Below, in pieces: positions 1 through 17,374 of a stretch of 19,766 nt of DNA; the stretch's first letter is position 1; each line of letters starts with the position of its first letter. Both the position numbers and the translations under genes were made by a program. The notes beneath the pieces were generated by a model, which saw nothing but the letters and a program-made list of their open reading frames with translations, had not been told where the DNA came from and searched no databases. This stretch comes from Armatimonadota bacterium (GTDB taxonomy: Bacteria > Armatimonadota > UBA10988), in contig JACRKZ010000001.1 of assembly GCA_016235455.1 (NCBI GenBank), forward strand, positions 1 through 19,766. Direction: 5' to 3'.

Positions 1-657
1 CAGCAGGTCGGTCAGCGAGCGATGGAAGACCCACTGCGCCTCGGGCTGGCCGACGATGCCTTCGGTCAGCCGCGCGGTCGGCGCGCGATAGCCCAGCACG
101 CGCACGCCGGCGCGGGGGGTGTAGCGACCGTCGGATCCCTCGGTCAGCTCGCAGAACCGCTCACTGGGCGCGGAGTGGAAGCAGGGGTGCGTGACCGAGA
201 AGACGAACGACCCGCGCGCGGACAGCAGGCTCGGCAGGGCCGCGAGCAGCGGGGCGATGTCGGGCATGTCCATCAGCGCCATGGTGCAGACCGCGCGGTC
301 GAAGCCCCGCTGGCCGAGCGCGGCCAGGTCGACGGCGTCGGTGGCATTGCACACACGGTAGTCGATAGGCAGCTCGCCGGGCGTACGCTGGCGAGCGAGT
401 TCGATGAACGAAGGGCTCTGGTCGAACGCGGTCACTCGGGCGCCAAGGGCGGCCATGCGCCGCGCCAAGCGGCCGCCGCCACAAGCGATGTCGAGCACCG
501 CCATGCCGGGCGCGAGATCGAGCAGGTCCAGCGTGGCCGGCTCAATGAGCAGGTCCTGGAAGTCGTTGCCGTCACCGATGCGAGCGTCCCACCACGCCGC
601 GTTGGCGTCCCAGCGGCGCTCGTTGTCGGCGTTTTGCTCGGCGAACCCTGCGTCCAC
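1..657 (-). CDS. Class I SAM-dependent methyltransferase (Methyltransf_11/25-like), 3' end outside the window
   Basis: Not in the ORF track because it has no stop in the window. Manual translation from GTG at 657 gives MDAGFAEQNADNERRWDANAAWWDARIGDGNDFQ...VLDIACGGGRLARRMAALGARVTAFDQS...FDRAVCTMALMDM...FVFSVTHPCF...FHRSLTDLL. Motif I (VLDIACGGG) and the following acidic residue are intact. It starts 5 nt after the upstream stop. Confidence 0.9.
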   Translation of the reverse strand, partial: MDAGFAEQNADNERRWDANAAWWDARIGDGNDFQDLLIEPATLDLLDLAPGMAVLDIACGGGRLARRMAALGARVTAFDQSPSFIELARQRTPGELPIDYRVCNATDAVDLAALGQRGFDRAVCTMALMDMPDIAPLLAALPSLLSARGSFVFSVTHPCFHSAPSERFCELTEGSDGRYTPRAGVRVLGYRAPTARLTEGIVGQPEAQWVFHRSLTDLL

Positions 658-662
658 GGACG

Positions 663-2129
663 TCAGTCGTCATCGCCGAAGGTCGGCCGCGAGCCGCTCG
701 GCGAGTAGACGCCGGTGAGCTGGGTCAGCCGTTCGCCGGCCTCCCACATGGCCCAGCAGGTCGGGCAGTCGCCGTTGGGCGGGCGCTTGGCGCGGTAGGC
801 GCGATGCACCTTGCAGCCTTCGGCCAGCAGAATAAGGTCTTGCAGGAAGCCCGAGAGGATGGCCAACTGGCTGTCCTCGCGCTCCAGCGCCCGGTCGCTG
901 GACAGCGCCATGGAGATGCTGGGATTGATGATGCGCTGCAGGCGCTCGGTCTCGGTGATGTCCTCGATCGCCTTGTCGTAGCGCGGCAGGAAGCCGTAGG
1001 TGCCGTTGGAGACGCTCCAGGTCACCTGGCCCGAGGGCAGGTCGACGCAGATGAGCGGCTGCCCGTCGTTGCGCTTGCCCAGGCCGGCTTCGTAGCCCAT
1101 GGCCAGAGACAGGCGCGCCACCAGCGAGGCAGCGTCGGTCTCGCGGCGCAGCAGATCGGTGTCGCCCAGCGGCACTTCGACGCGCTGGACCACGTCGGAG
1201 CCACGTCGGGCCTCTTGCGCCGCATCGAGCTGAGCGCTGAGCTGGGCCACGCGAGCGCGCAACTGCTCCACCTCGCCGGCGGCGGCGGCACTCGGCGCGG
1301 CCGTGGCCGCGGGCGGCGCGGCGGTCGCCTTGGCCTGCAACTCGGCGATGCGCGCGTCCCGCTCGGCGACCTGGCGCTCCAGCCCGGACTGCACCTCTTC
1401 GAGCCGCTTGCGCAGCGCGTCATGCTCTTTGGCCGCCTGCTCCTGCACCCGGCGCACGGGGTCGTCATCGCCCGTGGGCTGCACCTTGACCTCAACCTTG
1501 GAGCCGGCCGCCAACTGCATGGGTGCGCCGCGCAGGTGGCCGAACACGGCGGCCAGAACCTGGTCCTGGAGGTCGCTGAGCGCACCGTCGTTCTTGACGA
1601 TCAGATCGCACTCTTCCAGGTCAACATCGACCCCCGGCCGGTCGATACCCACCAGCAGGCCGTCGAGTTCGCGGATCAGCGCGCGCTCGGCCTCGGAGGT
1701 GACATCGTCGACCACCAGGTTGGGATGGGCCTCGGGCTTGTTGTGCTGGCGGAAGACGTCCAGCCAGAACGTCTCGGCGACGCTGTCGGCAAACAGCTCA
1801 AAGACGAAGTCCATGACTTCGCGCGCCGTGGCCAGCGGCTGGCGCCGCGCGGTCTCGCGCATCTTGTGGCTGGCAGCCGGCGGGATGGTGCGCCAGGCCG
1901 ACGCCAGACGGACCATGCCGTCGATGTGGAAAGGCTGCAGGGTGACCGGGTTGGGGAAGGCCTCGTCGGCCTTGGCGGTCATGGTCTCCTCGGATAGACC
2001 GGCAGCCATGGAGATCATATAGCGCAGCCGCTCGCGGAACCCGACGCGCTCATATCCCAACAGTGCCAGCGCGCCAGCCGCCGTGCGACGGCCCGAACCA
2101 CGCGCCCCGGTCAGTCCAATGATTGCCAT
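663..2129 (-). CDS. Multidomain protein: degenerate dNMP-kinase-like P-loop domain + coiled coil + DLPSGQVTW domain + C-terminal CxxH-CxxC putative Zn finger (488 aa)
   Basis: ATG at 2129 has GGAGG 6 nt upstream, so it is preferred over the track start at 2177. The N-terminus IIGLTGARGSGRRT...FW...VVDDV...IDRPG...DLIVKNDGALSDL follows the dNMP-kinase layout. The middle is heptad- and Ala/Pro-rich. The C-terminus reads CKVH-x12-CPTC-W. Confidence 0.8.
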   Translation of the reverse strand: MAIIGLTGARGSGRRTAAGALALLGYERVGFRERLRYMISMAAGLSEETMTAKADEAFPNPVTLQPFHIDGMVRLASAWRTIPPAASHKMRETARRQPLATAREVMDFVFELFADSVAETFWLDVFRQHNKPEAHPNLVVDDVTSEAERALIRELDGLLVGIDRPGVDVDLEECDLIVKNDGALSDLQDQVLAAVFGHLRGAPMQLAAGSKVEVKVQPTGDDDPVRRVQEQAAKEHDALRKRLEEVQSGLERQVAERDARIAELQAKATAAPPAATAAPSAAAAGEVEQLRARVAQLSAQLDAAQEARRGSDVVQRVEVPLGDTDLLRRETDAASLVARLSLAMGYEAGLGKRNDGQPLICVDLPSGQVTWSVSNGTYGFLPRYDKAIEDITETERLQRIINPSISMALSSDRALEREDSQLAILSGFLQDLILLAEGCKVHRAYRAKRPPNGDCPTCWAMWEAGERLTQLTGVYSPSGSRPTFGDDD

Positions 2130-2177
2130 TAATCCCTCCACGGCGAAGCCCCAACCGACTTCGTCATGAGCCCGCAC

Positions 2178-2188
2178 ATCTTAGCACA
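2178..2188 (-). promoter_or_regulatory. Putative extended -10 promoter (TGTG-C-TAAGAT) for the kinase-like gene
   Basis: The minus strand reads TGTGCTAAGAT about 50 nt upstream of ATG 2129, matching TRTGnTAnnnT. No clear -35 was seen. Confidence 0.55.
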
Positions 2189-2286
2189 GGTGCCGCCATT
2201 CCCTCCACCCGATCCCCAAGGTCGGTTCGTTTGGGCGCCATGGCACACCGTGAAACGTGGCGGAGATTGAGGGTTTGCACAGGCCC

Positions 2287-2321
2287 AACCGCCGCCCTCC
2301 CGGGTGGAGAAGACGACGGTT
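2287..2321 (-). terminator. Hairpin downstream of nrdJ (putative terminator or 3' stabiliser)
   Basis: Minus-strand RNA AACCGUCGUCUUCUC-CACCC-GGGAGGGCGGCGGUU forms a 15-bp stem that relies on G-U pairs, so it is strand-specific. It lies 21 nt after the nrdJ stop and has no U-tract. Confidence 0.45.
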
Positions 2322-2342
2322 GAGGCGTGATCTGGCAAACGA

Positions 2343-5300
2343 TCAGCTACAGCCGCTCGTCGACCCGCAGGTCTCGCACTTCAGGCATGTGCCGTTGCGG
2401 ACCATGGTGAATGAGCCGCACTCAGTGCAGGCCTCTCCAGTGTAGCCCTTCAGCCGGGCTTCCGCCATCTTGGCCTGCTTTTCCGTGCCCACACCGGTCG
2501 TCAAGGTGGCGTGCGCCGACTTGGGCACCTTCTGACCGTTGCTGCCGTCCGGCGGCGCCGGCACATCGTCCTCTTCGTTCTCGTCATCGAGCTCGTCGCG
2601 GTTGACCGCATCGCCGCGCAGGTCCTCGGGCGTGACATGGGCCAGGTCGACACGGTCCAGGTAGGTGATGGCCAGCTCGCGGAAGATGTAGTCGATGATC
2701 GACGTGCTCATCTTGATGCGCTCATGACCAGAGACCATGCCGTTGGGCTCGAACCGCGTGAAGACGAAGGCCTCGACATACTCCTCGAGCGGCACGCCGT
2801 ACTGCAGGCCGAGGGACACCGCGATGGCGAAGCAGTTCATCAGACTGCGGAAGGCGGCGCCCTCCTTGTGCATGTCGAGGAAGATCTCGCCCAGGTCGCC
2901 ATTCTCGTATTCGCCGGTGCGCAGGTAGATCTTGTGGCCGCCCACATGCGCCTTCTGCGTGTAGCCGCGCCGGCGGAACGGCAGCTTGTGCCGCTCGGTG
3001 CGCCATCGATAGACCAGTCGCTCGGCCAGCGCCTCGGCCTTGCTCTGCGCCGCCACGGGCGCCGGCAGGGCCGTGGCCAAGGCCAGCGCCACTACATTGC
3101 TGGTGCCGTCCGAGGTGGCCGACAGCGGCTGGCTCAGCTTGCTGCCGTCGCGATACAGCGCGTTGGCCTTGAGCATCATGCGCCAGGACAGCAGGTAGGC
3201 ATCCTTGACGTCGTCGACCGAGGCGTCCTGGGGCATGTTGATGGTCTTGGAGATGGCGCCCGAGATGAACGGCTGGGCCGCGCCCATGATGCGGATGTGG
3301 CTCTCGGCCGACAGGTAGCGCTGGCCATAGCGGCCGCACTTGCCGGCGCAGTCGAACACGCTCAAGTGCTCATCGCGCAGGCCCGGCGCGCCTTCCAGCG
3401 TCATCGTGCCGCAGACGTAGTCGTTGGCCAAGCGGATCTGCTCGGCGGTGAAGCCCAGCGCGGCCAGCAGGTTGAAGTCGAAGCGACCCAACTGCTCGGC
3501 GCCGAAGCCCAGTGACTTGGTGCAGAACTCCTCGCCAAGCGTGAACCGGTTGAACACGAAGGTGATATCGAAGGCCCCTTCGAGCGACGATTCCACCTGG
3601 GCGATGACCTCCGGGGTGAAGCCCTTGGCCGCGAGCTGATCGTGCGTCACCGCCGGGCTGCCGACCAGCGTACCGGCGCCACGGCAGTAGCGGATCATCG
3701 CGTCGACCTCGTCGTCCGCGTAGCCGAGCTTGGTCAGCGCCGCCGGCACGCTCTGGTTGATGATCTTGAAGTAGCCGCCACCGGCCAGCTTCTTGAACTT
3801 GACCAGCGCGTAGTCGGGCTCGATACCCGTGGTGTCGCAGTCCATGACCAGGCCGATGGTGCCCGTGGGCGCCACGCAGGAGACCTGCGCGTTGCGGTAG
3901 CCGTGCGCCTCGCCCAGGTCCTGAGCGCGGTCCCAGGCCCCGCGGGCCGCTTCGCCCAGCGCCGCCGGAATGAACTCGGCGCGCAGGCCTTGGGGCTTGA
4001 TGCTCAGGCCCTCGTAGTCGTCCTCGGCGGCGGCGTAGGCCGCGCGACGGTGGTTGCGCACCACGCGCAGCATGGCTTCGCGGTTCTCGCCATAGCGCAG
4101 GAACGTGCCCAGCTCGGCGGCCATCTCGGCCGACGTGGCATAGGCGTCGCCGGTCAGGATGGCCGACAGCGCCGCCGCCCAGGCGCGGCCCTCGTCGCTG
4201 TCGTAGGAGATGCCCATCTGCATCAGCAGCGCGCCCAGGTTGGCATAGCCCAGGCCCAGCGTGCGGTACTCGTAGCTCAGCCGGGCGATCGTCTCGCTGG
4301 GGAACTGAGCCATGAGCACGCTGATCTCGAGTACGACGGTCCAGAGCCGGATCACGTGCCGGTAGGTGTCGATATCGAACTCGCCCGTGGCCGGGTCAAG
4401 GAAGCGGCACAGGTTGATGCTGGCCAGGTTGCAGGCCGTGTCGTCCAGGAACATGTACTCGCTGCACGGGTTGCTCGCGTTGATGCGGCCGCCCGCGGGG
4501 CAGGTATGCCACTCGTTGATGGTGGTGTCGAACTGCAGACCGGGATCGGCCGAGGCCCAGGCGGCTTGGGCGATCTGGTCCCATAGGTCCACCGCGCGGA
4601 CGCGCTTGGCCTCTTCGCGCCGTGTGCGCCAGCGCAGCACCCACTCACCGTCGGCCAGCACGGCCTGCAGGAAATCGTTGGTCAGCCGCACCGAGTTGTT
4701 GGCGTTCTGACCCGAGACGGTGTTGTAGCCGTCGCCCTGCCAGTCGGTGTCGAACGATGGGAAGGTCAGGCCGGTGTAGCCCTGACGCGCGAACTCGACC
4801 ACCTTTTGCAGGTAGGCGGCCGGCACCGAGGCTTCCACGGCATCGCGCAAGGCCGCGTTGAGCTTGGGATTGACTCGCGGGTCGAACCGCGCCTCGCCCT
4901 CACCCTCACCCTCGCCACATGCGGTGAGCACGGCGCTCAGATGCTTCTGGCACAGCTTGCTGCCGGCGGCCAGCGCGGCCACCTTCTGCTCCTCGACCAT
5001 CTTCCAGGAGATGAACGCCTCGATGTCGGGGTGGTCGATGTCCAGGCAGACCATCTTGGCCGCGCGGCGCGTGGTGCCACCCGACTTGATGGCGCCGGCG
5101 GCACGATCGCCGATCTTGAGGAACGACATGAGCCCAGAGCTGCGCCCGCCGCCACTCAGCCGCTCGCCCTCGCCGCGCAGTGCGCTGAAGTTGCTGCCGG
5201 TGCCCGAGCCGTATTTGAACAGCCGCGCCTCGCGGGTCCACAGGTCCATGATGCCGCCGTCGTTGACCAGGTCGTCGGCCACGGACTGAATGAAGCAGGC

Positions 5301-5843
5301 GTGCGGCTGCGGGTGCTCATAGGCGTTGGTCGAACGGGTCAACTCGCCGCTCTCGGGGTCCACATAGTGGTGGCCCTGGGCTGGGCCGGCGATGCCATAG
5401 GCCCAGTGCAGACCGGTGTTGAACCACTGCGGGCTGTTGGGCGCGGCCATCTGCGCGGCCAGCATGTGGCACAACTCGTCCTGGAAGGCGTCGGCGTCGT
5501 CCTTGCTGTCGAAGTAGCCGTACTTCTCACCCCAGAAGCGCCAGCAGCCCGCCAGCCGCAGGAACACCTGCCGCGCATCGGTCTCGCCCGCGGTGATCGC
5601 ATTGCCCTTGGCATCCTTGCGCGGCTTGCCCTTGGTGTCCAGCACCGGCACGCCCGCACGCCGGAAGTACTTCTGCGCCAGGATGTCGCTGGCCACCTGC
5701 GACCAGTGCGCCGGTACCTGGAACCCCTCGAGCTCGAATACCACCGACCCGTCCGGATTCACAATCCGCGACGTCCGCTTGTCGAACGGCATCTCGCCGT
5801 ACGGCGACTGCCCCGCCTTGGTCAACCGACGCTCAACCTTCAT
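2343..5843 (-). CDS. nrdJ: Adenosylcobalamin-dependent (class II) ribonucleotide reductase with fused TSCPD domain and C-terminal Zn ribbon (1166 aa)
   Basis: Motifs include [40 protein letters not shown], catalytic [40 protein letters not shown], a TSCPD-type [12 protein letters not shown] and terminal CTEC...[11 protein letters not shown]. Start reassigned to ATG 5843 (AGGA upstream) because the track's extension to 5966 runs through the NrdR boxes into the promoter. Confidence 0.97.
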
Positions 5844-9213: not shown

Positions 9214-11235
9214 ATGGACCTGATCTGGCAGAGCTGCCGAGCAACCTTCGACGGCGCTGAACTGGTGGTCGCCAACGCCCTCGTCGAACGCCGCTGGCGC
9301 GTCGACCGCGGTCGCCTCTACCCCACCTCGCTGCGCGATCTGCTCGCCGGGCGCGAGTGGCTGACCGGCCCGTCGCCCCTGGCCGCGCCGACGCCGGCCG
9401 GAGGGGACGACGACGACGAGCCCTGCGAGTGGCACGTCGAGATGGTCGCCGACCGGGCGCTGCCGGTGGAAGAGCCGGCGCTACGAGTGACCTTGACCGC
9501 GTCGCAGGCGCGGGCCACGGTGGTCTACCACTTCGAGGTCTTCGAGCACGCCGCGGGCGTGGCCCTGCGCGTCGATACGTCGCTGGCGACCGCGGCCCAG
9601 ACCGGCGAGCCGGCCAACGCCGAGGCGGCGGTCACGGGCGTCGAGTTGGCCGACCAGGCCCAGGCCCGTGCCGCCCTGGCCGATGCCGACGTGATGGAGT
9701 ATCTGCTGCCCGCGGCCACCCATCTGCGCCTGACGCAGGTCAGCCTCTACGACCAGACGGACATCCGCAACGAACTGGTCTTCGAGAACGAGTGGCTGCT
9801 GCACACCAACGAGCGCGAGATCGCCCTCGATGGCTGCCTGTTCATCGTCGAGGAGACGCTGACCGGTGACGGCCTGATCCTGCTCAAGGAGGCGCCGCTG
9901 CCGCATGTGCGGCCCGTGCCCGGCGACCGCGACCTGCGCGTGCGCCCGGCCGGCGCCGGCTACAGCGTCAGTCTGTGCGGCCACGGTGCCGCCCCAGCGG
10001 GCGGCGAGGGCTATCGCTTCGTGACGCTGGCCTATCGCGGCGGCCGCGTGGGCCGCACCGCGGCACTGCACGGCTACCAGCGCTGCCGGCGTCGCTATGA
10101 GCCCGGCCGCGACGGCCTGTTCCTGAGCAACACCTGGGGCGACCGCAACCGCGACGGGCGCATCTGCGAGTCGTTCATGCGCGAGGAGATCGAGGCCGGC
10201 GCGGCGCTCGGCGTCGACGTCATCCAGATCGACGACGGCTGGCAGCGCGGCACGACCGCCAACTCGGTGGTGCCCGGCGGTGTGTGGGAAGGTTTCCACG
10301 ACGCCGACCCGCACTACTGGGAGCCGCACCCCCAGCGCTTCCCTCACGGCCTGGAGCCGGTGATCACGGAGGCCCGGTCTCGCGGCCTGCGGTTTGGTCT
10401 GTGGTTCTCACCCGATGCCGCCGACGACTACGTCAACTGGGAACTCGATGCCGCGCGGCTTCTCGATCTGCATCAGCGCCTCGGCGTGGAGTGCTTCAAA
10501 ATCGACGGGGTGAAGGCGCGCACCAAGCTGGGCGAGGCGCGCCTGCGCGACTTCTTCGCGCGCGTGCTCACCGCCTCCGCGGGGCGCGTGGTGTTCGACC
10601 TCGACGTCACCGCCGAGGTGCGCCCAGGCTACTTCGGCCGGCCCGAGGTGGGCCCGTTGTTCATCGAGAACCGCTACACCGACTTCCACCGCTACTGGCC
10701 GCACCAGACGCTGCGCAACCTGTGGAAGCTGGCGCGGTACATCGATCCCGTGCGGCTGCGCATGGAATTCCTCAACAACGCTCGGCACATGGACAAGTAC
10801 GCGGACGACCCGCTGGGGCCGCATGCCTACTCGCCGAGCTACCTGTTCGCGACGACGATGATGGCCAGCCCGCTGGGCTGGTTCGAGCTGTCCAATCTGC
10901 CCCGCACCTACTCTGGCGAACTGCCGGCGCTGGTGCGCGTCTGGCGCGAGCACCGCGACCGGATGCACGGTGGCTGCATCCAGCCCGTCGGCGACTGCCC
11001 CGACGGCACCGCGTGGACCGGCTTCGTGTCGGTCGGCACGACCGGCGGCGGCTACGCACTGGTGTTCCGCGAACTCAACGACCGGCCCGAGGCCAGCTTC
11101 GACCTGAGCGCCTTCGGTCAGCGGCCCACCCGCGCCGAGGTGCTGGCCGGCGAGGGCCGGGCCTGGTGCGCCGATGGGCGGTTGGTGGTAGCACTGCGGC
11201 AGCCGCTGCGGTTTGCGTTGGTGGCGCTGGGCTGA
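9214..11235 (+). CDS. GH36-like (clan GH-D) glycoside hydrolase, putative alpha-galactosidase
   Basis: SNTWGD, IQIDDGWQ, RFPHGL, GLRFGLWFSP and FKIDG (nucleophile Asp) TIM-barrel motifs. No signal peptide seen. Confidence 0.85.
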   Translation: MDLIWQSCRATFDGAELVVANALVERRWRVDRGRLYPTSLRDLLAGREWLTGPSPLAAPTPAGGDDDDEPCEWHVEMVADRALPVEEPALRVTLTASQARATVVYHFEVFEHAAGVALRVDTSLATAAQTGEPANAEAAVTGVELADQAQARAALADADVMEYLLPAATHLRLTQVSLYDQTDIRNELVFENEWLLHTNEREIALDGCLFIVEETLTGDGLILLKEAPLPHVRPVPGDRDLRVRPAGAGYSVSLCGHGAAPAGGEGYRFVTLAYRGGRVGRTAALHGYQRCRRRYEPGRDGLFLSNTWGDRNRDGRICESFMREEIEAGAALGVDVIQIDDGWQRGTTANSVVPGGVWEGFHDADPHYWEPHPQRFPHGLEPVITEARSRGLRFGLWFSPDAADDYVNWELDAARLLDLHQRLGVECFKIDGVKARTKLGEARLRDFFARVLTASAGRVVFDLDVTAEVRPGYFGRPEVGPLFIENRYTDFHRYWPHQTLRNLWKLARYIDPVRLRMEFLNNARHMDKYADDPLGPHAYSPSYLFATTMMASPLGWFELSNLPRTYSGELPALVRVWREHRDRMHGGCIQPVGDCPDGTAWTGFVSVGTTGGGYALVFRELNDRPEASFDLSAFGQRPTRAEVLAGEGRAWCADGRLVVALRQPLRFALVALG

Positions 11236-11254
11236 GCCCGGCCGGAGAGATTGC

Positions 11255-12742
11255 GTGGCGCATCGACCGTGGTGGTACCTGTTCCTCCTGGCGTCCGCGC
11301 CGCTCTGGGCGGCCGAACCGCCGCTGGTCGCCACCATCGACACCGGCCGCGTGCTGGCCGACCCGTTCCTGGGTTTTGGCGTGCAGTGGGAGTATGAGGG
11401 CGATCACCCGGAGAACAACGTCGCCAACCCGACTTGGGAGGCGAACTGGCCACGCATGCTCGAGCGCCTCGACTTCATGCGCCCGGCCATCCTGCGCGTC
11501 ATGCACCACGCCGGCATGTACAGCCGACTGGACGGCGGCCACGTGGTCGCCGAGTACGACTCGCCGCGCATGACCGCCATGTACCGGCTGCTGGACTACA
11601 CCAAGGCCCGCGGCATTCCCTTGGTGTTCGGCGAGTGGTACCTGCCCAAGGCCTACATCGAGCCGCTGGGCGGCCTGGCCAGCCCACGCTGGGCGGATGA
11701 GCTGGTCGTGCCCTTCTTGCGCCACCTGCGACAGGTCAAGGGCTACGAGAACATCCGCTGGTTCAACCTGATGAACGAGCCGGTGGGTCTGGAGTCAGCG
11801 CCCGGCGTGCCGCTTGACTATGACACCTGGAAGGCCGCCATCACCCATTTACACGAGGCGTTGCGGCGCGCTGGGCTCGACCAGGCGGTGCGCATCGTCG
11901 GCACTGATGGGCCGGGCGACTTCAACCACTGGATTGAGCGCGTCGCCGGCGACGCCGACCTGCGCGACCGGCTGGGCGCCTACGAGTACCACATCTACGC
12001 GCACCTCGGCACCGACAAGTGGTTGCCCGGCCTGCTGACCGGCAGACTGGGGCCGGACGAGCTGGCCGTGCGTCGGCAGATCGTCAACCGCCTCGACCCG
12101 CGCGGCGCGAGCAAGCCGTTCTTCATGGGCGAGGCCGGCATCGATGACGGCAACAAAGGCGACAATCAGACCAACCGCGGCAGCTTCGCCTACGGCGTCT
12201 GGATGGCCGACTACGCGGTCCAGTCCATCAATGCCGGACAGGCCGGGCTGATCGCCTGGGACATGGACGATGCCATGCACACCTGGGGCTCCTACGGCGC
12301 CTCGGGGCTCAAGGGCTGGGGATTCTGGAACAGTCTCGCGGGCTTCAACGGCTACCCGGCCGACGACTTCGACATCCGCCCGTGGTTCTACACCTGGTCG
12401 CTGCTGTGCCGCCTGTTCCCCGCCGGCGCGCACCCGCTGCCGGTCAGTGACCTCGCCGACGAGGCCTGCCGCGTGGCCGCGGCGCGCCTGGCAGACGGCC
12501 AGGGGCTGTCCCTGGTCGTGGTCAACGAGGCGACCACACCGCGCGACGTGCTACTACGCCTGCCCGACCCTCGGCCGCTGACGCTGGTCGAGTATCGTTA
12601 CTTCGACGGCGAGCGGCCCGTGGACGCCAAGGGGCTACCCATGCCGAGCGCGTTACGGCGCGACTGCCGCCTGGACGCCGGCGTGACCGTCGCTCTGCCG
12701 GCGCAGGGCGTCGTCTTTCTGACCACCGCGCAGCCGCACTGA
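11255..12742 (+). CDS. Secreted clan GH-A glycoside hydrolase (GH30/GH5/GH39-like)
   Basis: GTG at 11255 follows GGAGAG and gives the signal MAHRPWWYLFLLASAPLWA|A. It has FLGFGVQW, acid/base NLMNEP, YEYHIY, nucleophile FMGEAG and a C-terminal beta-sandwich (LSLVVVN). Exact family uncertain. Confidence 0.78.
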   Translation: MAHRPWWYLFLLASAPLWAAEPPLVATIDTGRVLADPFLGFGVQWEYEGDHPENNVANPTWEANWPRMLERLDFMRPAILRVMHHAGMYSRLDGGHVVAEYDSPRMTAMYRLLDYTKARGIPLVFGEWYLPKAYIEPLGGLASPRWADELVVPFLRHLRQVKGYENIRWFNLMNEPVGLESAPGVPLDYDTWKAAITHLHEALRRAGLDQAVRIVGTDGPGDFNHWIERVAGDADLRDRLGAYEYHIYAHLGTDKWLPGLLTGRLGPDELAVRRQIVNRLDPRGASKPFFMGEAGIDDGNKGDNQTNRGSFAYGVWMADYAVQSINAGQAGLIAWDMDDAMHTWGSYGASGLKGWGFWNSLAGFNGYPADDFDIRPWFYTWSLLCRLFPAGAHPLPVSDLADEACRVAAARLADGQGLSLVVVNEATTPRDVLLRLPDPRPLTLVEYRYFDGERPVDAKGLPMPSALRRDCRLDAGVTVALPAQGVVFLTTAQPH

Positions 12743-12756
12743 AGGGAAGCTGATCC

Positions 12757-14163
12757 ATGGCCTCTGACGGTCCTGACCGACGCGACTTACTGCAGACCGC
12801 CGCCCTGACCGCCGCCGCGCTGGGCGTGGCCCCAGAGGCCCTGGCGCAGCCGGCCGGCGCGCCCAAGCGGCCCAACATCCTGGTCATCCTCACCGACGAC
12901 CAGGGCCGCGGCGACTACAGCGCCTTTGGCACCCGCGACATCCGCACGCCAGGCATCGACCGCCTGTGCGCCGAAGGCGTGACCTTCGACAACTTCTACG
13001 CCAACAGTTCGGTCTGCTCGCCCAGCCGCGCGGCGCTGCTCACCGGCTGCTTCCCCGACCGCGTGGGCGTGCCCGGCGTCATCCGCGAGGAGCACCCACA
13101 GGACTCCTGGGGCTGGCTCTGGAAGGACGCCACGCTGCTGCCCGAGGTGCTCGGCCCGGCCGGCTACCACTCCGCGCTCATCGGCAAGTGGCATCTGGGC
13201 CTGTCGTCGCCCAACACCCCCACCGACCGTGGGTTCGACCACTTCCACGGCTTCCTGGGCGACATGATGGACGACTACTGGACCCATCGGCGGAACGGCT
13301 TCAACTTCATGCGCCAGGACAAGCAGGTCATCGACCCGCCAGGTCATGCCACCGACCTGTTCACCCAGTGGGCCTGCGAGCACCTGGAGGTGCGGGCCAG
13401 GTTGGACCAGCCGTTCTTCTTGTATCTGGCCTACAACGCGCCGCACGACCCCATCCAACCGCCGCCCGAGGCGCTGGCCAAGGTCAAGCAGCGCGAGCCC
13501 GACATGACCGACAAGCGCGCGCGGCTGGTGGCGCTCATCGAGCACATGGACGACGGCATCCGCCAGGTACTGGACACGCTGGACCGCACCGGTCTGGCCC
13601 AGAACACGCTGGTCGTCTACACCTCGGACAACGGCGGCGTGCTGGCCAATGGCGCTAACAACGGCCCTTGGCGCAGCGAGAAGGGCCACATGTATGAAGG
13701 CGGCCTGCGCGTGCCCGGCGCCGCACGGTGGCCCGGCCACATCGCGGCTGGCAGCCGCACCGAACGCATCACGCTGACCATGGACATCTTCGGCGCTGCC
13801 TGCGAAGCGGCCGGCGTCAAACCGCCCGCGGGCATCGACGCTTTGAGCTTCCTGCCGGCGCTGCGCGGCGAGGCCGATGGCGAGGCGGAGCGGGACCGCT
13901 ATTTCGTGCGGCGCGAGGGCGGCCTGGCGTATGCCGGCAAGACCATCGAGGCGCTGCGCCGCGGCGACTGGAAGATCCTCCAGGACAGCCCGTTCGCGGC
14001 GTTGGAGTTATACGATCTGGCCCACGACCCGCGGGAGACCACCAACCTGGCGGCCAGCGAACGCCAACGCTTCGGCCAAATGGCCGCGGCGCTGCGCGGG
14101 CATGTGCAGCGTGGCGGCGAGGTGCCTTGGCAGCCAGCCCACGAGCCTGGACAAGAGAGATGA
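12757..14163 (+). CDS. Formylglycine-dependent (family S1) sulfatase, Tat-exported
   Basis: Twin-arginine DRRDLL leader, RPNILVILTDDQG, CSPSRAALLTG signature, GKWHLG, TSDNG, KG..YEGG.RVP and ELYDL..DP.ETTNLA. Confidence 0.96.
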   Translation: MASDGPDRRDLLQTAALTAAALGVAPEALAQPAGAPKRPNILVILTDDQGRGDYSAFGTRDIRTPGIDRLCAEGVTFDNFYANSSVCSPSRAALLTGCFPDRVGVPGVIREEHPQDSWGWLWKDATLLPEVLGPAGYHSALIGKWHLGLSSPNTPTDRGFDHFHGFLGDMMDDYWTHRRNGFNFMRQDKQVIDPPGHATDLFTQWACEHLEVRARLDQPFFLYLAYNAPHDPIQPPPEALAKVKQREPDMTDKRARLVALIEHMDDGIRQVLDTLDRTGLAQNTLVVYTSDNGGVLANGANNGPWRSEKGHMYEGGLRVPGAARWPGHIAAGSRTERITLTMDIFGAACEAAGVKPPAGIDALSFLPALRGEADGEAERDRYFVRREGGLAYAGKTIEALRRGDWKILQDSPFAALELYDLAHDPRETTNLAASERQRFGQMAAALRGHVQRGGEVPWQPAHEPGQER

Positions 14164-14171
14164 GCTTGCGA

Positions 14172-14258
14172 GCAGCCCCCACCCCAGCCCTCCCCGCGAG
14201 CGGGGAGGGAGTCAAGACCACCGTCCCCCCGCCCGCGGGGGACGACCGTGGGGGCTGC
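14172..14258. repeat. REP-like composite palindrome (outer inverted repeat enclosing two hairpins)
   Basis: A perfect 11-bp outer IR, GCAGCCCCCAC (14172-14182) / GTGGGGGCTGC (14248-14258), encloses CCCTCCCCGC-GA-GCGGGGAGGG (14188-14209) and CGTCCCCC...GGGGGACG (14222-14244). Confidence 0.8.
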
Positions 14259-14288
14259 CCAGCGCGCCCACGTCAAGGGAGACCCAAC

Positions 14289-15941
14289 ATGCCACAGCGC
14301 ACCGCTCTCATTCTGATTTGCGCGTTGAGCGCCGCCGTCAGCGCCGCCGACCTGGTGCCCAACGGCTCGTTCGACGAGGCCGACGCCAAGGGCGACATCG
14401 CCGGCTGGACCACCGATGCCGCCGGCATGAAGGGCATCACCTTCGCCCGTGACACGGAAGTCAAGCGCAACGGCACCGCGTCGGCGCGCATGACCATCGT
14501 CGGCGCCGACAACCCCAGTTGGCCCGCCTTCGTGGCCAACGTGCCGGTACGGCCCGAGCAATGCTACCGCGTGGACCTGGCCATCCGCACGCGCGATGTC
14601 GAGCGCGTGGCCTATGTCGCGACCGACTACCTCGACGCCAAGGGTCAGCGCGTCACCTTCAGCTCCAGCGCCACCATCAGCGGCACCTCAACCGACTGGC
14701 AGGCCGTGTCGCTGGCCGCGCGCATCCCCCAAGGCGCCGTGACCATGTCCATCCGGCTCATCCTCTATGGCAACGGCACCGCCTGGTTCGACGATGTGCA
14801 GGTGGTGCGCGACGAGGCCCGGGAGGCGGCCTACGCCAAGCTCCAGGCGCCCTTGCCCGCCGAACTGGTGACCCGCGGCACGGTCAGCGCCGGCGATTTC
14901 GCGCGGCTGCACCGTGTCTTCCAGGCGGCGACGCGCGGCGGCGAGTTCACGTTCGGCGTCATCGGCGGCTCCATCACCGCCGGCGCCTCGGCCACCAGCG
15001 TCGAGGCGCGCTACTCGGGCTACGTGCTGCGCTGGCTTAGCGCGCACTTCCCGCAGGCCAAGTGGACGCTGGTCAACGCAGGCATCGGCGCCACCGGCAC
15101 CAACTACGGCTGCCTGCGCGCCCAGCGTGACCTGCTGAGCAAGGCGCCCGACCTGGTGATCACCGAGTATGCGGTCAACGACGGCAACACGCAGGAGCAC
15201 GCCGAGACCTACGAGGGCCTGTTGCGGCAGATCCTGACCAGCCCCAAGCAGCCCGCGGTGGTCATGCTGTTCATGATGGCCAACGGCGGCGGCAACGCCC
15301 AGGAATGGCAGAGCAAACTCGGGAAGCACTATGGGCTGCCCATGCTCAGCTACCGCGACATGCTGTGGCCCGAGATCGAGGCCAAGCGCATGGCCTGGAG
15401 CGACATCAGCCCCGACAGCGTGCACCCCAACGACGTTGGCCAGGCTTACACCGGCAACCTGATCAACACACTGCTCGACCGTGCGCTGGCCAGCGCGCCC
15501 CCGACCGCGGCCGTCGCCGGTGCACTGCCGGCGCCGCTGCTGACAGACGTCTACCAGTTCGCCCATCTGGCCGAGGCCGTCGATCTCAAACCCTCGGCCA
15601 ACCAGGGCTGGGCGCTGGACAACGATCAGTGGGCCAAAGGCTGGAAGGCCACCCAACCCGGCAGCACCCTCGAGTTTGAGGTCACCGGCGAGCAGGTCTT
15701 CCTCTCCTACTGGCGCATCCGCGGGCCCATGGGCCGCGCACGAGTGACCATCGACGGCCAGAACCCGAGTGTGCAGGAAGCCTGGTTCGACCAGACCTGG
15801 GGCGGCTATCGCCACATGATCAAGCTGCCCACCGGTGCGCCAGGCAAGCATGTCGTCAAGCTGGAACTCCTGGCCGAGAGGGCCGCCGAGAGTGCCGGGA
15901 ATGAGTTCCGGCTGCTGTGCCTGGGCACGGCAGGCAAATGA
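14289..15941 (+). CDS. Secreted SGNH/GDSL hydrolase with N-terminal CBM4/9-like domain and C-terminal beta-sandwich (550 aa)
   Basis: ATG at 14289 follows GGGAG. Signal peptide, LVPNGSFD...AWFDDVQV (galactose-binding-like fold), and SGNH blocks IGGSIT, NAGIGAT, EYAVND and DSVHPN. The track start at 13728 overlaps the sulfatase and the REP and is rejected. Confidence 0.9.
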   Translation: MPQRTALILICALSAAVSAADLVPNGSFDEADAKGDIAGWTTDAAGMKGITFARDTEVKRNGTASARMTIVGADNPSWPAFVANVPVRPEQCYRVDLAIRTRDVERVAYVATDYLDAKGQRVTFSSSATISGTSTDWQAVSLAARIPQGAVTMSIRLILYGNGTAWFDDVQVVRDEAREAAYAKLQAPLPAELVTRGTVSAGDFARLHRVFQAATRGGEFTFGVIGGSITAGASATSVEARYSGYVLRWLSAHFPQAKWTLVNAGIGATGTNYGCLRAQRDLLSKAPDLVITEYAVNDGNTQEHAETYEGLLRQILTSPKQPAVVMLFMMANGGGNAQEWQSKLGKHYGLPMLSYRDMLWPEIEAKRMAWSDISPDSVHPNDVGQAYTGNLINTLLDRALASAPPTAAVAGALPAPLLTDVYQFAHLAEAVDLKPSANQGWALDNDQWAKGWKATQPGSTLEFEVTGEQVFLSYWRIRGPMGRARVTIDGQNPSVQEAWFDQTWGGYRHMIKLPTGAPGKHVVKLELLAERAAESAGNEFRLLCLGTAGK

Positions 15942-15952
15942 CCCGGCACCTG

Positions 15953-16240
15953 TTCGTTGTACCGGCTTCAGCCGAACGGCGATTCCACACGGGCTCAGCG
16001 CAGCCAGTGCCGGACCGCCACGCTCCAGCGTGGCATCGGCCCAGAGGCGAAGCCGGCGGGCCGACTAGCGTGCGAAGCGGTTGGGAAGGTCGGGTCTTCG
16101 ACCCGATGCCACGCTGGAGCGTGGCGGTCCGGCACTGGTTCGGGCTGATCCGCGCATGGGCACAACCTGCAGACCGCCAGTGGAGTCGCCATCCGGCTTC
16201 AGCCGGCCTGTCGGACACCGGCTGAAGCCGGTGAAACGAG
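15953..16240. repeat. Nested REP/REPIN-like cluster of two palindrome families
   Basis: A perfect 36-bp IR (16004-16039 / 16103-16138) has arms that each contain GCCACGCT-CC/GG-AGCGTGGC. It is flanked by three CCGGCT(TC/GA)AGCCG(G) palindromes at 15962-15974, 16193-16206 and 16218-16231. Confidence 0.85.
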
Positions 16241-16273
16241 CAAGCGCGCCGTGACGCGATGGAGACGGAGCCC

Positions 16274-17374
16274 ATGGTGAGGACATGGTGTATAGCGTGG
16301 CTGCTCGTGACCGCGGCCCACGCCGCCGAGCCCCAGCGCATCCTCGTCGTCGGCACCAACACCGCCGCTGACGCCGCCGCGGTCAACGCCGCGATCGCCG
16401 CCAGCCCCGAGGGCAGCGAAGTGGTCTTCCGCGGCCGGTTCCTGCTCACCGCCACCGTCCGCCTGCGCGCGGGCCGCTCCTATGGGGGCGAGAGCCGCGC
16501 GGGCACGGTCTTCCGCCAGGCCGACGGCGCCAATCTGCCCGCGCTGGTAGCCTCCGATGTCTGGCTCGATAACACCACCTGGACCGGCTCACCCATGGCC
16601 ATTCGCCGGCTCACGCTGGACGGCAACCGCGCGGGCAACCCCACCGGCAAGACGGCTGGCCTGGTGCTGCGCGCCTGGCTGAGTGTTGCCGAGGATCTGC
16701 ACATCACCGGCATGGGCAGCGACGGCCTGCGCCTGACCAGCCTCAGCGCCGACGGCACGGCATTGAAGAACAGCCAGGTCAACGGCCGCATCGCCGACTG
16801 CTTCATTGAGCGCTCGGGCCGCCACGGCATCTTCGTCGAGGATCCCGGCAATGCGGTGACCGACTGGATCCTGCGCGACAATTGGATCGCGAGTTCCGGC
16901 GCCGACGGCATCCACCTGGACAACGCCGCCGGCTGGATGATCGAGCGCAACCACATCTACGGCGTGCCGCACCATGCCATCTACGCCCACCGCCTGTTCG
17001 CCACGTCCATCAGCGACAACTACATCGAGGGCTTCGGCGAGACCACCGAGCCGGGCACCTGGTGCGGCATCGCCGCCACGCTCCAGGGCGACGCTGCCTC
17101 CACGCTCGTGGGCAACCGCGTCTTCTGCTTCGCCGGCGAGAAGCAGGAAGCCTCGACCTACCGCTACCTATCGCTGACGGTCAACTACGGTGAGGCCCTG
17201 GCCAGCGTCACCGGCAATACCATTCGCGGCGCCGGCACGCCGCGCGGCACGGGCCTGTACTACGCCGCCGACGCGGGTCGCGCGCTGACCGTGGTGTCGG
17301 CCGGCAACGCCGTGGACAAGGTCGCGCTGGTGCGGTCCGTCGGCGAGCGAGTGACCGTATCGGCCGGGCAGTAG
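16274..17374 (+). CDS. Secreted right-handed parallel beta-helix protein (pectin-lyase-like fold)
   Basis: Signal MVRTWCIAWLLVTAAHA|A, D.AAVNAAI...G..V.F.G start, LTLDGN, and repeated beta-helix turns (DGLRL, HGIFV, DNWI, DGIHL, RNHI, DNYI, GNRV, GNTI). The start could alternatively be 16259. Confidence 0.85.
   Translation: MVRTWCIAWLLVTAAHAAEPQRILVVGTNTAADAAAVNAAIAASPEGSEVVFRGRFLLTATVRLRAGRSYGGESRAGTVFRQADGANLPALVASDVWLDNTTWTGSPMAIRRLTLDGNRAGNPTGKTAGLVLRAWLSVAEDLHITGMGSDGLRLTSLSADGTALKNSQVNGRIADCFIERSGRHGIFVEDPGNAVTDWILRDNWIASSGADGIHLDNAAGWMIERNHIYGVPHHAIYAHRLFATSISDNYIEGFGETTEPGTWCGIAATLQGDAASTLVGNRVFCFAGEKQEASTYRYLSLTVNYGEALASVTGNTIRGAGTPRGTGLYYAADAGRALTVVSAGNAVDKVALVRSVGERVTVSAGQ

Follow-up and report, generated by a model that had tools for sequence, protein, structure and literature searches.

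The window, by which we mean the whole stretch of 19,766 nucleotides (nt) analysed here from contig JACRKZ010000001.1 of an Armatimonadota bacterium (assembly GCA_016235455.1), contains at positions 663..2129 of the reverse strand a gene that joins four parts in one protein, hereafter the fusion protein. The gene is a single open frame of 488 codons with its stop codon at 663-665. Its product consists of an N-terminal kinase-like domain (residues 1-205; 1515..2129) with the fold of the T4 gp1-type deoxynucleoside monophosphate (dNMP) kinases and the degenerate catalytic motifs of a putative pseudokinase, a helical segment (residues 224-312; 1194..1460) in which two long helices are split by an Ala/Pro linker, a divergent WDGH-type domain (residues 326-408; 906..1154) without the WH and WDGH histidines and, finally, a C-terminal helix-knuckle-helix module (residues 421-475; 705..869) whose knuckle, at 744-815, is a presumed zinc site; all four are encoded on the reverse strand. 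An initial annotation of this stretch had proposed one 488-residue protein with four segments at these positions, and the reading frame, an AlphaFold2 (AF2) model, Foldseek, PHROG and hhalign bear this out. The ribosome-binding site that it had named is also present: the Shine-Dalgarno sequence GGAGGG can be read at 2134..2139 (reverse strand), 4 nt ahead of the ATG at 2129. We preferred this ATG over a GTG at 2177 because homologues of the fusion protein begin at the same N-terminus, MAIIG/MPIVG, in the alignment.

The fusion is not an artefact of assembly. A 2764-nt contig from another sample (run X2) covers window positions 600-2400 with only five differences, and full-length homologues of the fusion protein, 42-88% identical, are known from independent assemblies. 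The differences within the open reading frame (ORF) fall at third codon positions in 20 of 20 cases (5 in X2 and 15 in contigs from RNA libraries), a count that covers the 20 differences listed, with 38 more lying outside it. In the same contigs the spacer on the nrdJ side differs at scattered positions, indels among them. Thus, the pattern in the ORF together with the scattered spacer changes identifies a translated gene under purifying selection. The RNA-library contigs, X16 and X19, belong to a close relative (~91-97% identical) and overlap parts of the gene; we do not take them as proof of expression, as DNA carry-over is possible and a contig that extends over two genes does not equal a single transcript.

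Neither the architecture, which the initial annotation had not recognised, nor the protein as a whole corresponds to a described family in Pfam, NCBIfam or PADLOC, and full-length relatives are rare. A word-indexed search of 5.8 billion proteins returned nine sequences including the query, 45-88% identical, and one of the eight relatives is named as a protein of a Fimbriimonadaceae metagenome-assembled genome. With phmmer, an exhaustive comparison against 1.84 billion representatives yielded 157 matches at E up to 0.001, five of them at E up to 1e-30. In a sample of 401 genomes of the phylum there were seven matches at E up to 0.001, and the four that were full-length all came from one family. 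Four of the six genomes of that family carry the gene; no match was obtained in the remaining two, which are 95% (G043) and 72% (G069) complete. The gene is present in a single copy, and no paralogue of any part of it was found in its own genome, which is 93% complete. The copy from the same genus (G056; L010 6145-7566) is only 42% identical to the fusion protein (window 666-2129), compared with 74% for the adjacent NrdJ and 65% for LptF/G, and copies from other genera are 46-52% identical, which suggests either unusually fast evolution or an old split.

All full-length copies, from three genera of the family and three metagenome contigs and as little as 42% identical, have an intact frame, and 84 residues are invariant across the fusion family. 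Together with the third-position differences and, as a weak hint given the carry-over just mentioned, the RNA-library contigs over parts of the gene, this speaks against a decaying prophage remnant without function. We consider such a remnant highly improbable, even though conserved motifs are gone from both of the recognisable domains, as described below.

The N-terminal domain shows the clearest relationship to a known protein. Residues 1-205 match the PHROG family phrog_139 (dNMP kinase) with an E-value of 4.1e-12, and they obtain only 15 bits from the Pfam model DNMK (PF21448), for which the cut-off is 27.1. The AF2 model has a mean predicted local distance difference test (pLDDT) score of 87.2 over its full length and scores of 93-98 across residues 1-200. 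A Foldseek search with the full-length model placed the T4 dNMP kinase (1DEK_B) first, with an E-value of 1.1e-8, a TMt of 0.70 and a root mean square deviation (rmsd) of 3.4 Å over 231 columns; the next matches, at E 6e-3, were dephospho-CoA kinases. A profile built from the fusion family and its relatives matches 1DEK with an E-value of 1.2e-33. Residues 1-205 thus have the same fold as T4 gp1 (1DEK/1DEL; PF21448; phrog_139), and they share with the nearest stand-alone kinase relatives a helical insertion that separates the P-loop from the R..LQ region. This insertion contains the invariants F67-H68-x-D70-G71, which are specific to the fusion family. In contrast to T4 gp1, the fusion protein is ~280 residues longer and has three further modules.

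A comparison of about 120 stand-alone kinase relatives of 150-260 amino acids (aa), collected with phmmer, with nine members of the fusion family revealed a systematic loss of catalytic motifs. The lysine of the Walker-A motif (G-x4-G-K-[DST]-T), corresponding to T4 K14, is present in 120 of 120 stand-alone kinases and in none of the nine fusion proteins, all of which have an arginine at this position. The R..LQ..G motif (102 of 120), the D-x-R arginine (T4 R177; 119 of 120) and the H-x-S/T-E lid (T4 H206/T208/E209; 109 of 120) are likewise found in 0 of 9 members, and so is the P-loop aspartate. By motif correspondence, the T4 positions lost in the fusion family are K14, D15, Q136, R177 and H206/T208/E209. 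Among the substrate contacts given for T4 gp1 in Table 2 of PMC10653934, K14 and D15 contact the ATP phosphates, R177 contacts the phosphate and the base of the dNMP, and H206, T208 and E209 form the pocket lock. Several of the replaced positions vary within the fusion family; at 114, 144 and 147 the commonest residue occurs in only four of nine members.

Other residues of the T4 enzyme have equivalents in all nine fusion proteins, namely R103 (T4 R132), D142 (D175), E148 (E181), R164 (R197), N180 (N223) and W122 (W152), and R36 occupies the position of T4 K37 in every member. The P-loop glycines and R14 are also invariant. Because residues for nucleotide recognition are kept and those for phosphoryl transfer are lost, we refer to the domain as a putative nucleotide-binding pseudokinase. 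Replacement of the Walker-A lysine by arginine usually preserves binding and abolishes turnover, and judged by its motifs the domain is most likely catalytically dead. Of the dNMP-kinase-like domain named by the initial annotation, the fold stands and the catalytic activity most likely does not, the catalytic motifs being lost in nine of nine members.

The opposite view is that the protein is a divergent (d)NMP kinase that has stayed active and that its C-terminal modules anchor to the reductase or to the replication machinery. Such an arrangement would resemble the T4 dNTP-synthesising complex, the fold is that of T4 gp1, and nrdJ lies directly upstream in four of seven loci (see below). Moreover, an arginine can contact phosphates, and R103, R164, D142 and E148 are all in place. 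We nevertheless regard retained activity as unlikely, as the Walker-A lysine, the P-loop aspartate, the D-x-R arginine and the lid are absent from all nine members and the motifs compared are present in 102-120 of 120 stand-alone kinases; the low Pfam DNMK score points the same way.

That a T4-type dNMP kinase can be domesticated in a bacterial chromosome is illustrated by PP_1964 of Pseudomonas putida KT2440. As described in PMC10653934, PP_1964 still has the P-loop (R-S-G-K-D-T) and eight of the ten residues that contact ATP, and it is the source of the essential thymidylate kinase activity. The fusion protein, on the other hand, lacks the residues that PP_1964 keeps and is joined to other domains. 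Another family of the same phylum (G270; L005 1447-2160, reverse strand) also encodes a stand-alone dNMP kinase of the canonical kind, complete in its catalytic motifs, which adjoins a helicase-like ORF in what is possibly a mobile-element or prophage setting.

The kinase-like domain is followed by the helical segment, which in the AF2 model forms helices at residues 224-270 and 281-312 with the Ala/Pro linker (residues 271-280) between them. The model and a heptad bias in the sequence suggest a coiled coil, through which the fusion protein is probably dimeric. The segment is the least conserved part of the protein, with a mean identity of 28%. A search of PDB sequences with the single fusion protein returned only coiled-coil noise.

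The third part is related to the WDGH domain of phages. An hhalign comparison of the fusion family with nine bona fide WDGH proteins gave a probability of 98.7% and an E-value of 3.5e-16 over 75 columns (residues 333-407), and the homologous core comprises a helix, a DLPxGQVxW hairpin and an EKYxR helix. Among the phmmer relatives of residues ~300-405, P0071, P0077 and P0113 score above the cut-off of the Pfam model PF25311 and P0082 lies 0.4 bits below it. The fusion protein itself (P0001) is missed by this model at E up to 1, and at E up to 0.1 the model has no match in the fusion protein's own genome, nor in any of 14 control genomes. The fusion family differs from the bona fide WDGH proteins at the signature residues: all nine of the latter have the histidine of "WH" and an unchanged "WDGH" motif, whereas the fusion family lacks both and has W-S/P/T/F and A/S-x-x-x, respectively, in their place. 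The nearest relatives of the domain are a WDGH-less subgroup (P0041, P0051, P0060 and P0078), also with an N-terminal helical stretch, and a comparable helical or coiled-coil stretch often precedes the domain in stand-alone WDGH relatives.

WDGH domains are widespread among phages. We found them in 36 records from isolated phages (of Vibrio, Bacillus, Streptomyces and others) and in nine viral contigs, and stand-alone WDGH relatives match phrog_16023, 3392, 26338 and 3769, four PHROGs that have no assigned function. Among the phage matches listed (30 of 36), every annotated one is a "hypothetical protein", and a full-text literature search for "WDGH" found nothing relevant among the papers listed. 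Predicted structures of phage WDGH proteins in BFVD are among the matches of the AF2 model, with probabilities of 0.87-0.93, rmsd values of 3.0-4.1 Å and E-values of only 0.25-0.32. A tblastn search of isolated phages with residues 326-488 gave no match, and P0051, of the WDGH-less subgroup, has none among isolated phages either. The neighbourhoods of the viral WDGH genes are heterogeneous and include recombinase/integrase, SNF2-methylase, HNH, portal-capsid and glycosyltransferase genes; in the flanks of the nine viral loci, up to 6 kb on each side where the contig allowed, there is no dNMP kinase and no C-terminal module of the type described below. In two related viral contigs (L019 5864-6634 and L022 4593-5018) the WDGH match is located between P22-type portal and capsid genes, an unusual slot for a non-structural gene.

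The C-terminal module is the best-conserved part of the fusion protein, with a mean identity of 69%, compared with 55% for the kinase-like and the WDGH-like domains. Its knuckle has the pattern C439-x2-H442-x12-C455-x2-C458-x3-W462. In a domain-only AF2 model (pLDDT 94-98), a helix at residues 423-437 is followed by an 18-residue loop that carries C439, H442 and C455 and by a second helix at residues 456-475. Across 11 aligned sequences from the fusion family and stand-alone proteins, the first Cys, the His, Y445 and the two other Cys residues are invariant and the Trp is nearly so. From this ligand pattern the CHCC knuckle is predicted to bind zinc. The knuckle is basic, with an isoelectric point (pI) of 9.5, and none of Pfam, PHROGs and NCBIfam holds a model for it; the ESM Atlas gave no usable match for residues 410-488 or 210-488.

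Small stand-alone proteins share the C-x2-H-x2-Y-x9-C-x2-C-x3-W knuckle and a hydrophobic helix with the fusion protein. With one query alignment we located 30 bacterial loci, mostly from SAR116/Puniceispirillum and other marine Alphaproteobacteria, and in viral contigs this query had no match. These proteins are 45-90 aa in length, seven of eight have a pI of 8.6-9.9, and they differ from the fusion protein in standing alone, in ordinary chromosomal contexts in other phyla; the 36 neighbouring ORFs scanned at nine of the loci are ordinary metabolic or regulatory genes. A 70-aa stand-alone copy, flanked by housekeeping genes, occurs in a different family of the phylum to which the fusion protein belongs, and a search of shorter proteins for the module gave one match. 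A tblastn search of phages with the stand-alone module P0093 yielded two matches with E-values of 0.01-0.2. The initial annotation had taken the domains of the fusion protein to be of phage type. This holds for the kinase-like domain and the domain it called "VDLPSGQVTW", both of which have relatives in PHROGs, and, for the latter, in isolated phages and viral contigs; for the Cys/His module, with 30 bacterial loci and none in viral contigs, it does not on the evidence so far.

At four loci of the SAR116 type (L035, L046, L050 and L053, at ~3300-4130) the CHCC mini-protein directly follows a flavin-reductase-like gene, a pattern that we count as one observation and not four because the loci are related; in L046 and L050 a gene for SRAP (SOS-response peptidase) comes next. 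One further protein, P0013 (271 aa), combines an MFS-transporter-like N-terminal part with the last ~85 residues of the fusion family and probably reflects a frameshift or an assembly error, its contig being short.

Directly upstream of the fusion gene and in the same direction lies nrdJ (2343..5843, reverse strand), which encodes a class II ribonucleotide reductase of 1166 aa (Pfam Ribonuc_red_lgC, Ribonuc_red_2_N and TSCPD). This NrdJ is long; it includes a TSCPD domain, and its C-terminal tail is rich in Cys. The same arrangement is found in four of the seven loci that we compared, namely the window, the same-genus genome G056 and the short metagenome contigs L056 and L057, and the association expected by the initial annotation thus holds for one subclade only. 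In the other three loci the neighbours are different: URO-D, DUF711 and PGK genes in G015, where nrdJ is followed by a different ORF; PGA_cap, AAA ATPase and acetate kinase genes in G029; and in L058 carB, a ParE-like ORF, HAD and Glycos_transf_3 genes on one side and HD-GYP and HDOD response regulators on the other.

The spacers between nrdJ and the fusion gene (~110-215 nt) have diverged in the four linked loci, except that the motif GTGCTANNNT is kept 31-49 nt before the start in all of them. In the window it takes the form GTGCTAAGAT (2178..2187, reverse strand), an extended -10-like sequence 49 nt before the ATG that is the sole match in the window. It occurs once per locus in L010 (6091-6100), L056 (528-537) and L057 (373-382), 31-45 nt before the start. 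A scan of window positions 500-2500 for sigma-70 promoters with two hexamers found none, and the promoter that the initial annotation had ascribed to the gene is retained only as a candidate, in the form of the conserved GTGCTANNNT. From its sequence and placement, this motif is a putative extended -10-type promoter belonging to the fusion gene, and it may represent an extended -10 promoter type of this lineage. Rfam gave no family at the gathering score in the whole window, cobalamin riboswitches included, and thus no riboswitch was detected before nrdJ.

We tentatively read the fusion protein as a domesticated, vertically inherited, non-catalytic and probably dimeric nucleotide-binding adaptor that derives from a phage-type dNMP kinase. 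The N-terminal domain, which keeps the equivalents of the T4 residues in contact with the ATP base and the dNMP base, would most likely bind a (deoxy)nucleotide without phosphorylating it, and the long helical segment would most likely bring two subunits together. The output end would then comprise the WDGH-like domain together with the basic knuckle, and the partner bound there would be either a nucleic acid or a protein. The position of the gene directly behind nrdJ in one subclade, with a candidate promoter of its own, would fit a role tied to deoxynucleotide supply. A non-enzymatic role as a sensor or scaffold, which the initial annotation had put forward, fits the loss of the catalytic motifs.

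Several points weigh against this adaptor. The equivalence to T4 residues is presumed from motif correspondence, and an arginine at the Walker-A lysine position is no proof of inactivity, as can be seen from phage T7 gp1.7, an active nucleotide kinase without canonical motifs. The label of output end is a guess. In addition, the gene is dispensable, since two of the six genomes of the family have no match to it. Finally, nrdJ is not adjacent in three of the seven loci (G015, G029 and L058), and the four loci in which it is adjacent are kin from one subclade, so that the adjacency may be inherited synteny.

A possible alternative, to which we give somewhat less credence, is a coiled-coil scaffold or nucleic-acid-associated structural protein in which the dead kinase serves as an interaction or dimerisation module and senses no nucleotide. 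The residues for phosphoryl transfer and for the dNMP phosphate are gone, positions 114, 144 and 147 vary within the family, the best-conserved part is the basic C-terminal module and not the kinase domain, and the neighbourhoods are heterogeneous, all of which would suit such a scaffold. Against it, nine of nine members retain the residues that contact the ATP base and the dNMP base in T4 gp1, and R14 and the P-loop glycines are invariant, a pattern that would be difficult to account for if there were no ligand pocket.

A more specific proposal is that the protein reports deoxynucleotide status, as a sensor of a kind not recognised before: in a dimeric protein held together by the coiled coil, the dead phage dNMP kinase would form the head that binds the ligand, the knuckle and the WDGH-like domain would contact either the class II reductase or nucleic acid, and the protein would work beside NrdR. 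In this detailed form we consider the proposal rather unlikely. The analogy with NrdR, the zinc ribbon and ATP-cone repressor of nrd genes, is one of working only and consists of a Cys-rich metal module together with a non-catalytic nucleotide-binding domain beside a reductase gene. The fusion protein differs in having neither an ATP-cone nor an NrdR-type ribbon and stands outside the NrdR family; searches of Pfam and NCBIfam gave no ATP-cone or NrdR match to it. We also considered it as a substitute for NrdR and rejected this, as each of the family's six genomes, also the two that lack the fusion gene, encodes NrdR (TIGR00244, above the cut-off).

The genomic setting was also searched for phage and defence genes. 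Among the 16 ORFs of the window a Pfam scan found no integrase and no phage structural gene, in agreement with the chromosomal setting without a prophage that had been described. PADLOC-DB 2.0 gave only coiled-coil matches, to LmuB and JetC, at residues 220-324 with E-values of 0.0055-0.033. Across the seven loci the neighbours are mostly housekeeping or signalling genes, and the two defence-type genes each occur at one locus only: an AAA_15/AAA_21 ATPase in L011 and a ParE-type toxin ORF in L058 (3773-4144, reverse strand, between carB and the HAD hydrolase gene), each ~3 kb from the fusion homologue. The linkage to defence islands that had been contemplated was therefore found in none of the seven loci, and with neither such linkage nor a PADLOC match the idea of a decoy is unsupported. 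An anti-phage defence component, or a decoy that displays phage-like domains as bait, would account for the two domains with phage relatives, and the low identity of the G056 copy (42%, against 74% for NrdJ) could reflect fast evolution. Against it are the neighbourhoods and PADLOC results just given, the presence of a single copy without paralogues in the genome and the lack of any recognised effector domain, and we judge it very unlikely.

Two of the parts of the fusion protein, the WDGH domain and the fold of the T4-type dNMP kinases, are already catalogued, the CHCC knuckle being the exception. What is new is that the parts are combined and that both catalogued domains have systematically lost their signature residues, features not represented in the libraries searched; a literature search on the combination of a dNMP kinase, a coiled coil and a DUF found nothing relevant among the papers listed. 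The fusion protein connects the chromosomal T4-type dNMP kinases, the phage WDGH domain and an unnamed family of small zinc-knuckle proteins. If the adaptor reading holds, it clearly exemplifies how an enzyme of phages can become a pseudoenzyme of bacteria and part of a new multidomain protein. A sensor of deoxynucleotide status, if true, would for the first time offer a way into the function of the widespread phage WDGH domain and of the small CHCC proteins from marine bacteria. The practical reach is limited, as the family is tiny and confined to one family of uncultured bacteria, in which the gene is dispensable.

On its other side the fusion gene is followed, 6 nt past its stop codon, by a gene for a methyltransferase dependent on S-adenosylmethionine (1..657, reverse strand) that runs off the window. 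We regard it as a neighbour only; it is not found beside the G056 homologue (L010), and the genes downstream in L010 and L057 differ. Other genes of the window (LptF/G, glycoside hydrolases, sulfatase and GDSL lipase) are ordinary neighbours. Positions 9214-17374 of the forward strand hold genes for melibiase-like, GH5-like, sulfatase, GDSL hydrolase and beta-helix proteins, apparently a cluster for polysaccharide degradation with no relation to the fusion gene.

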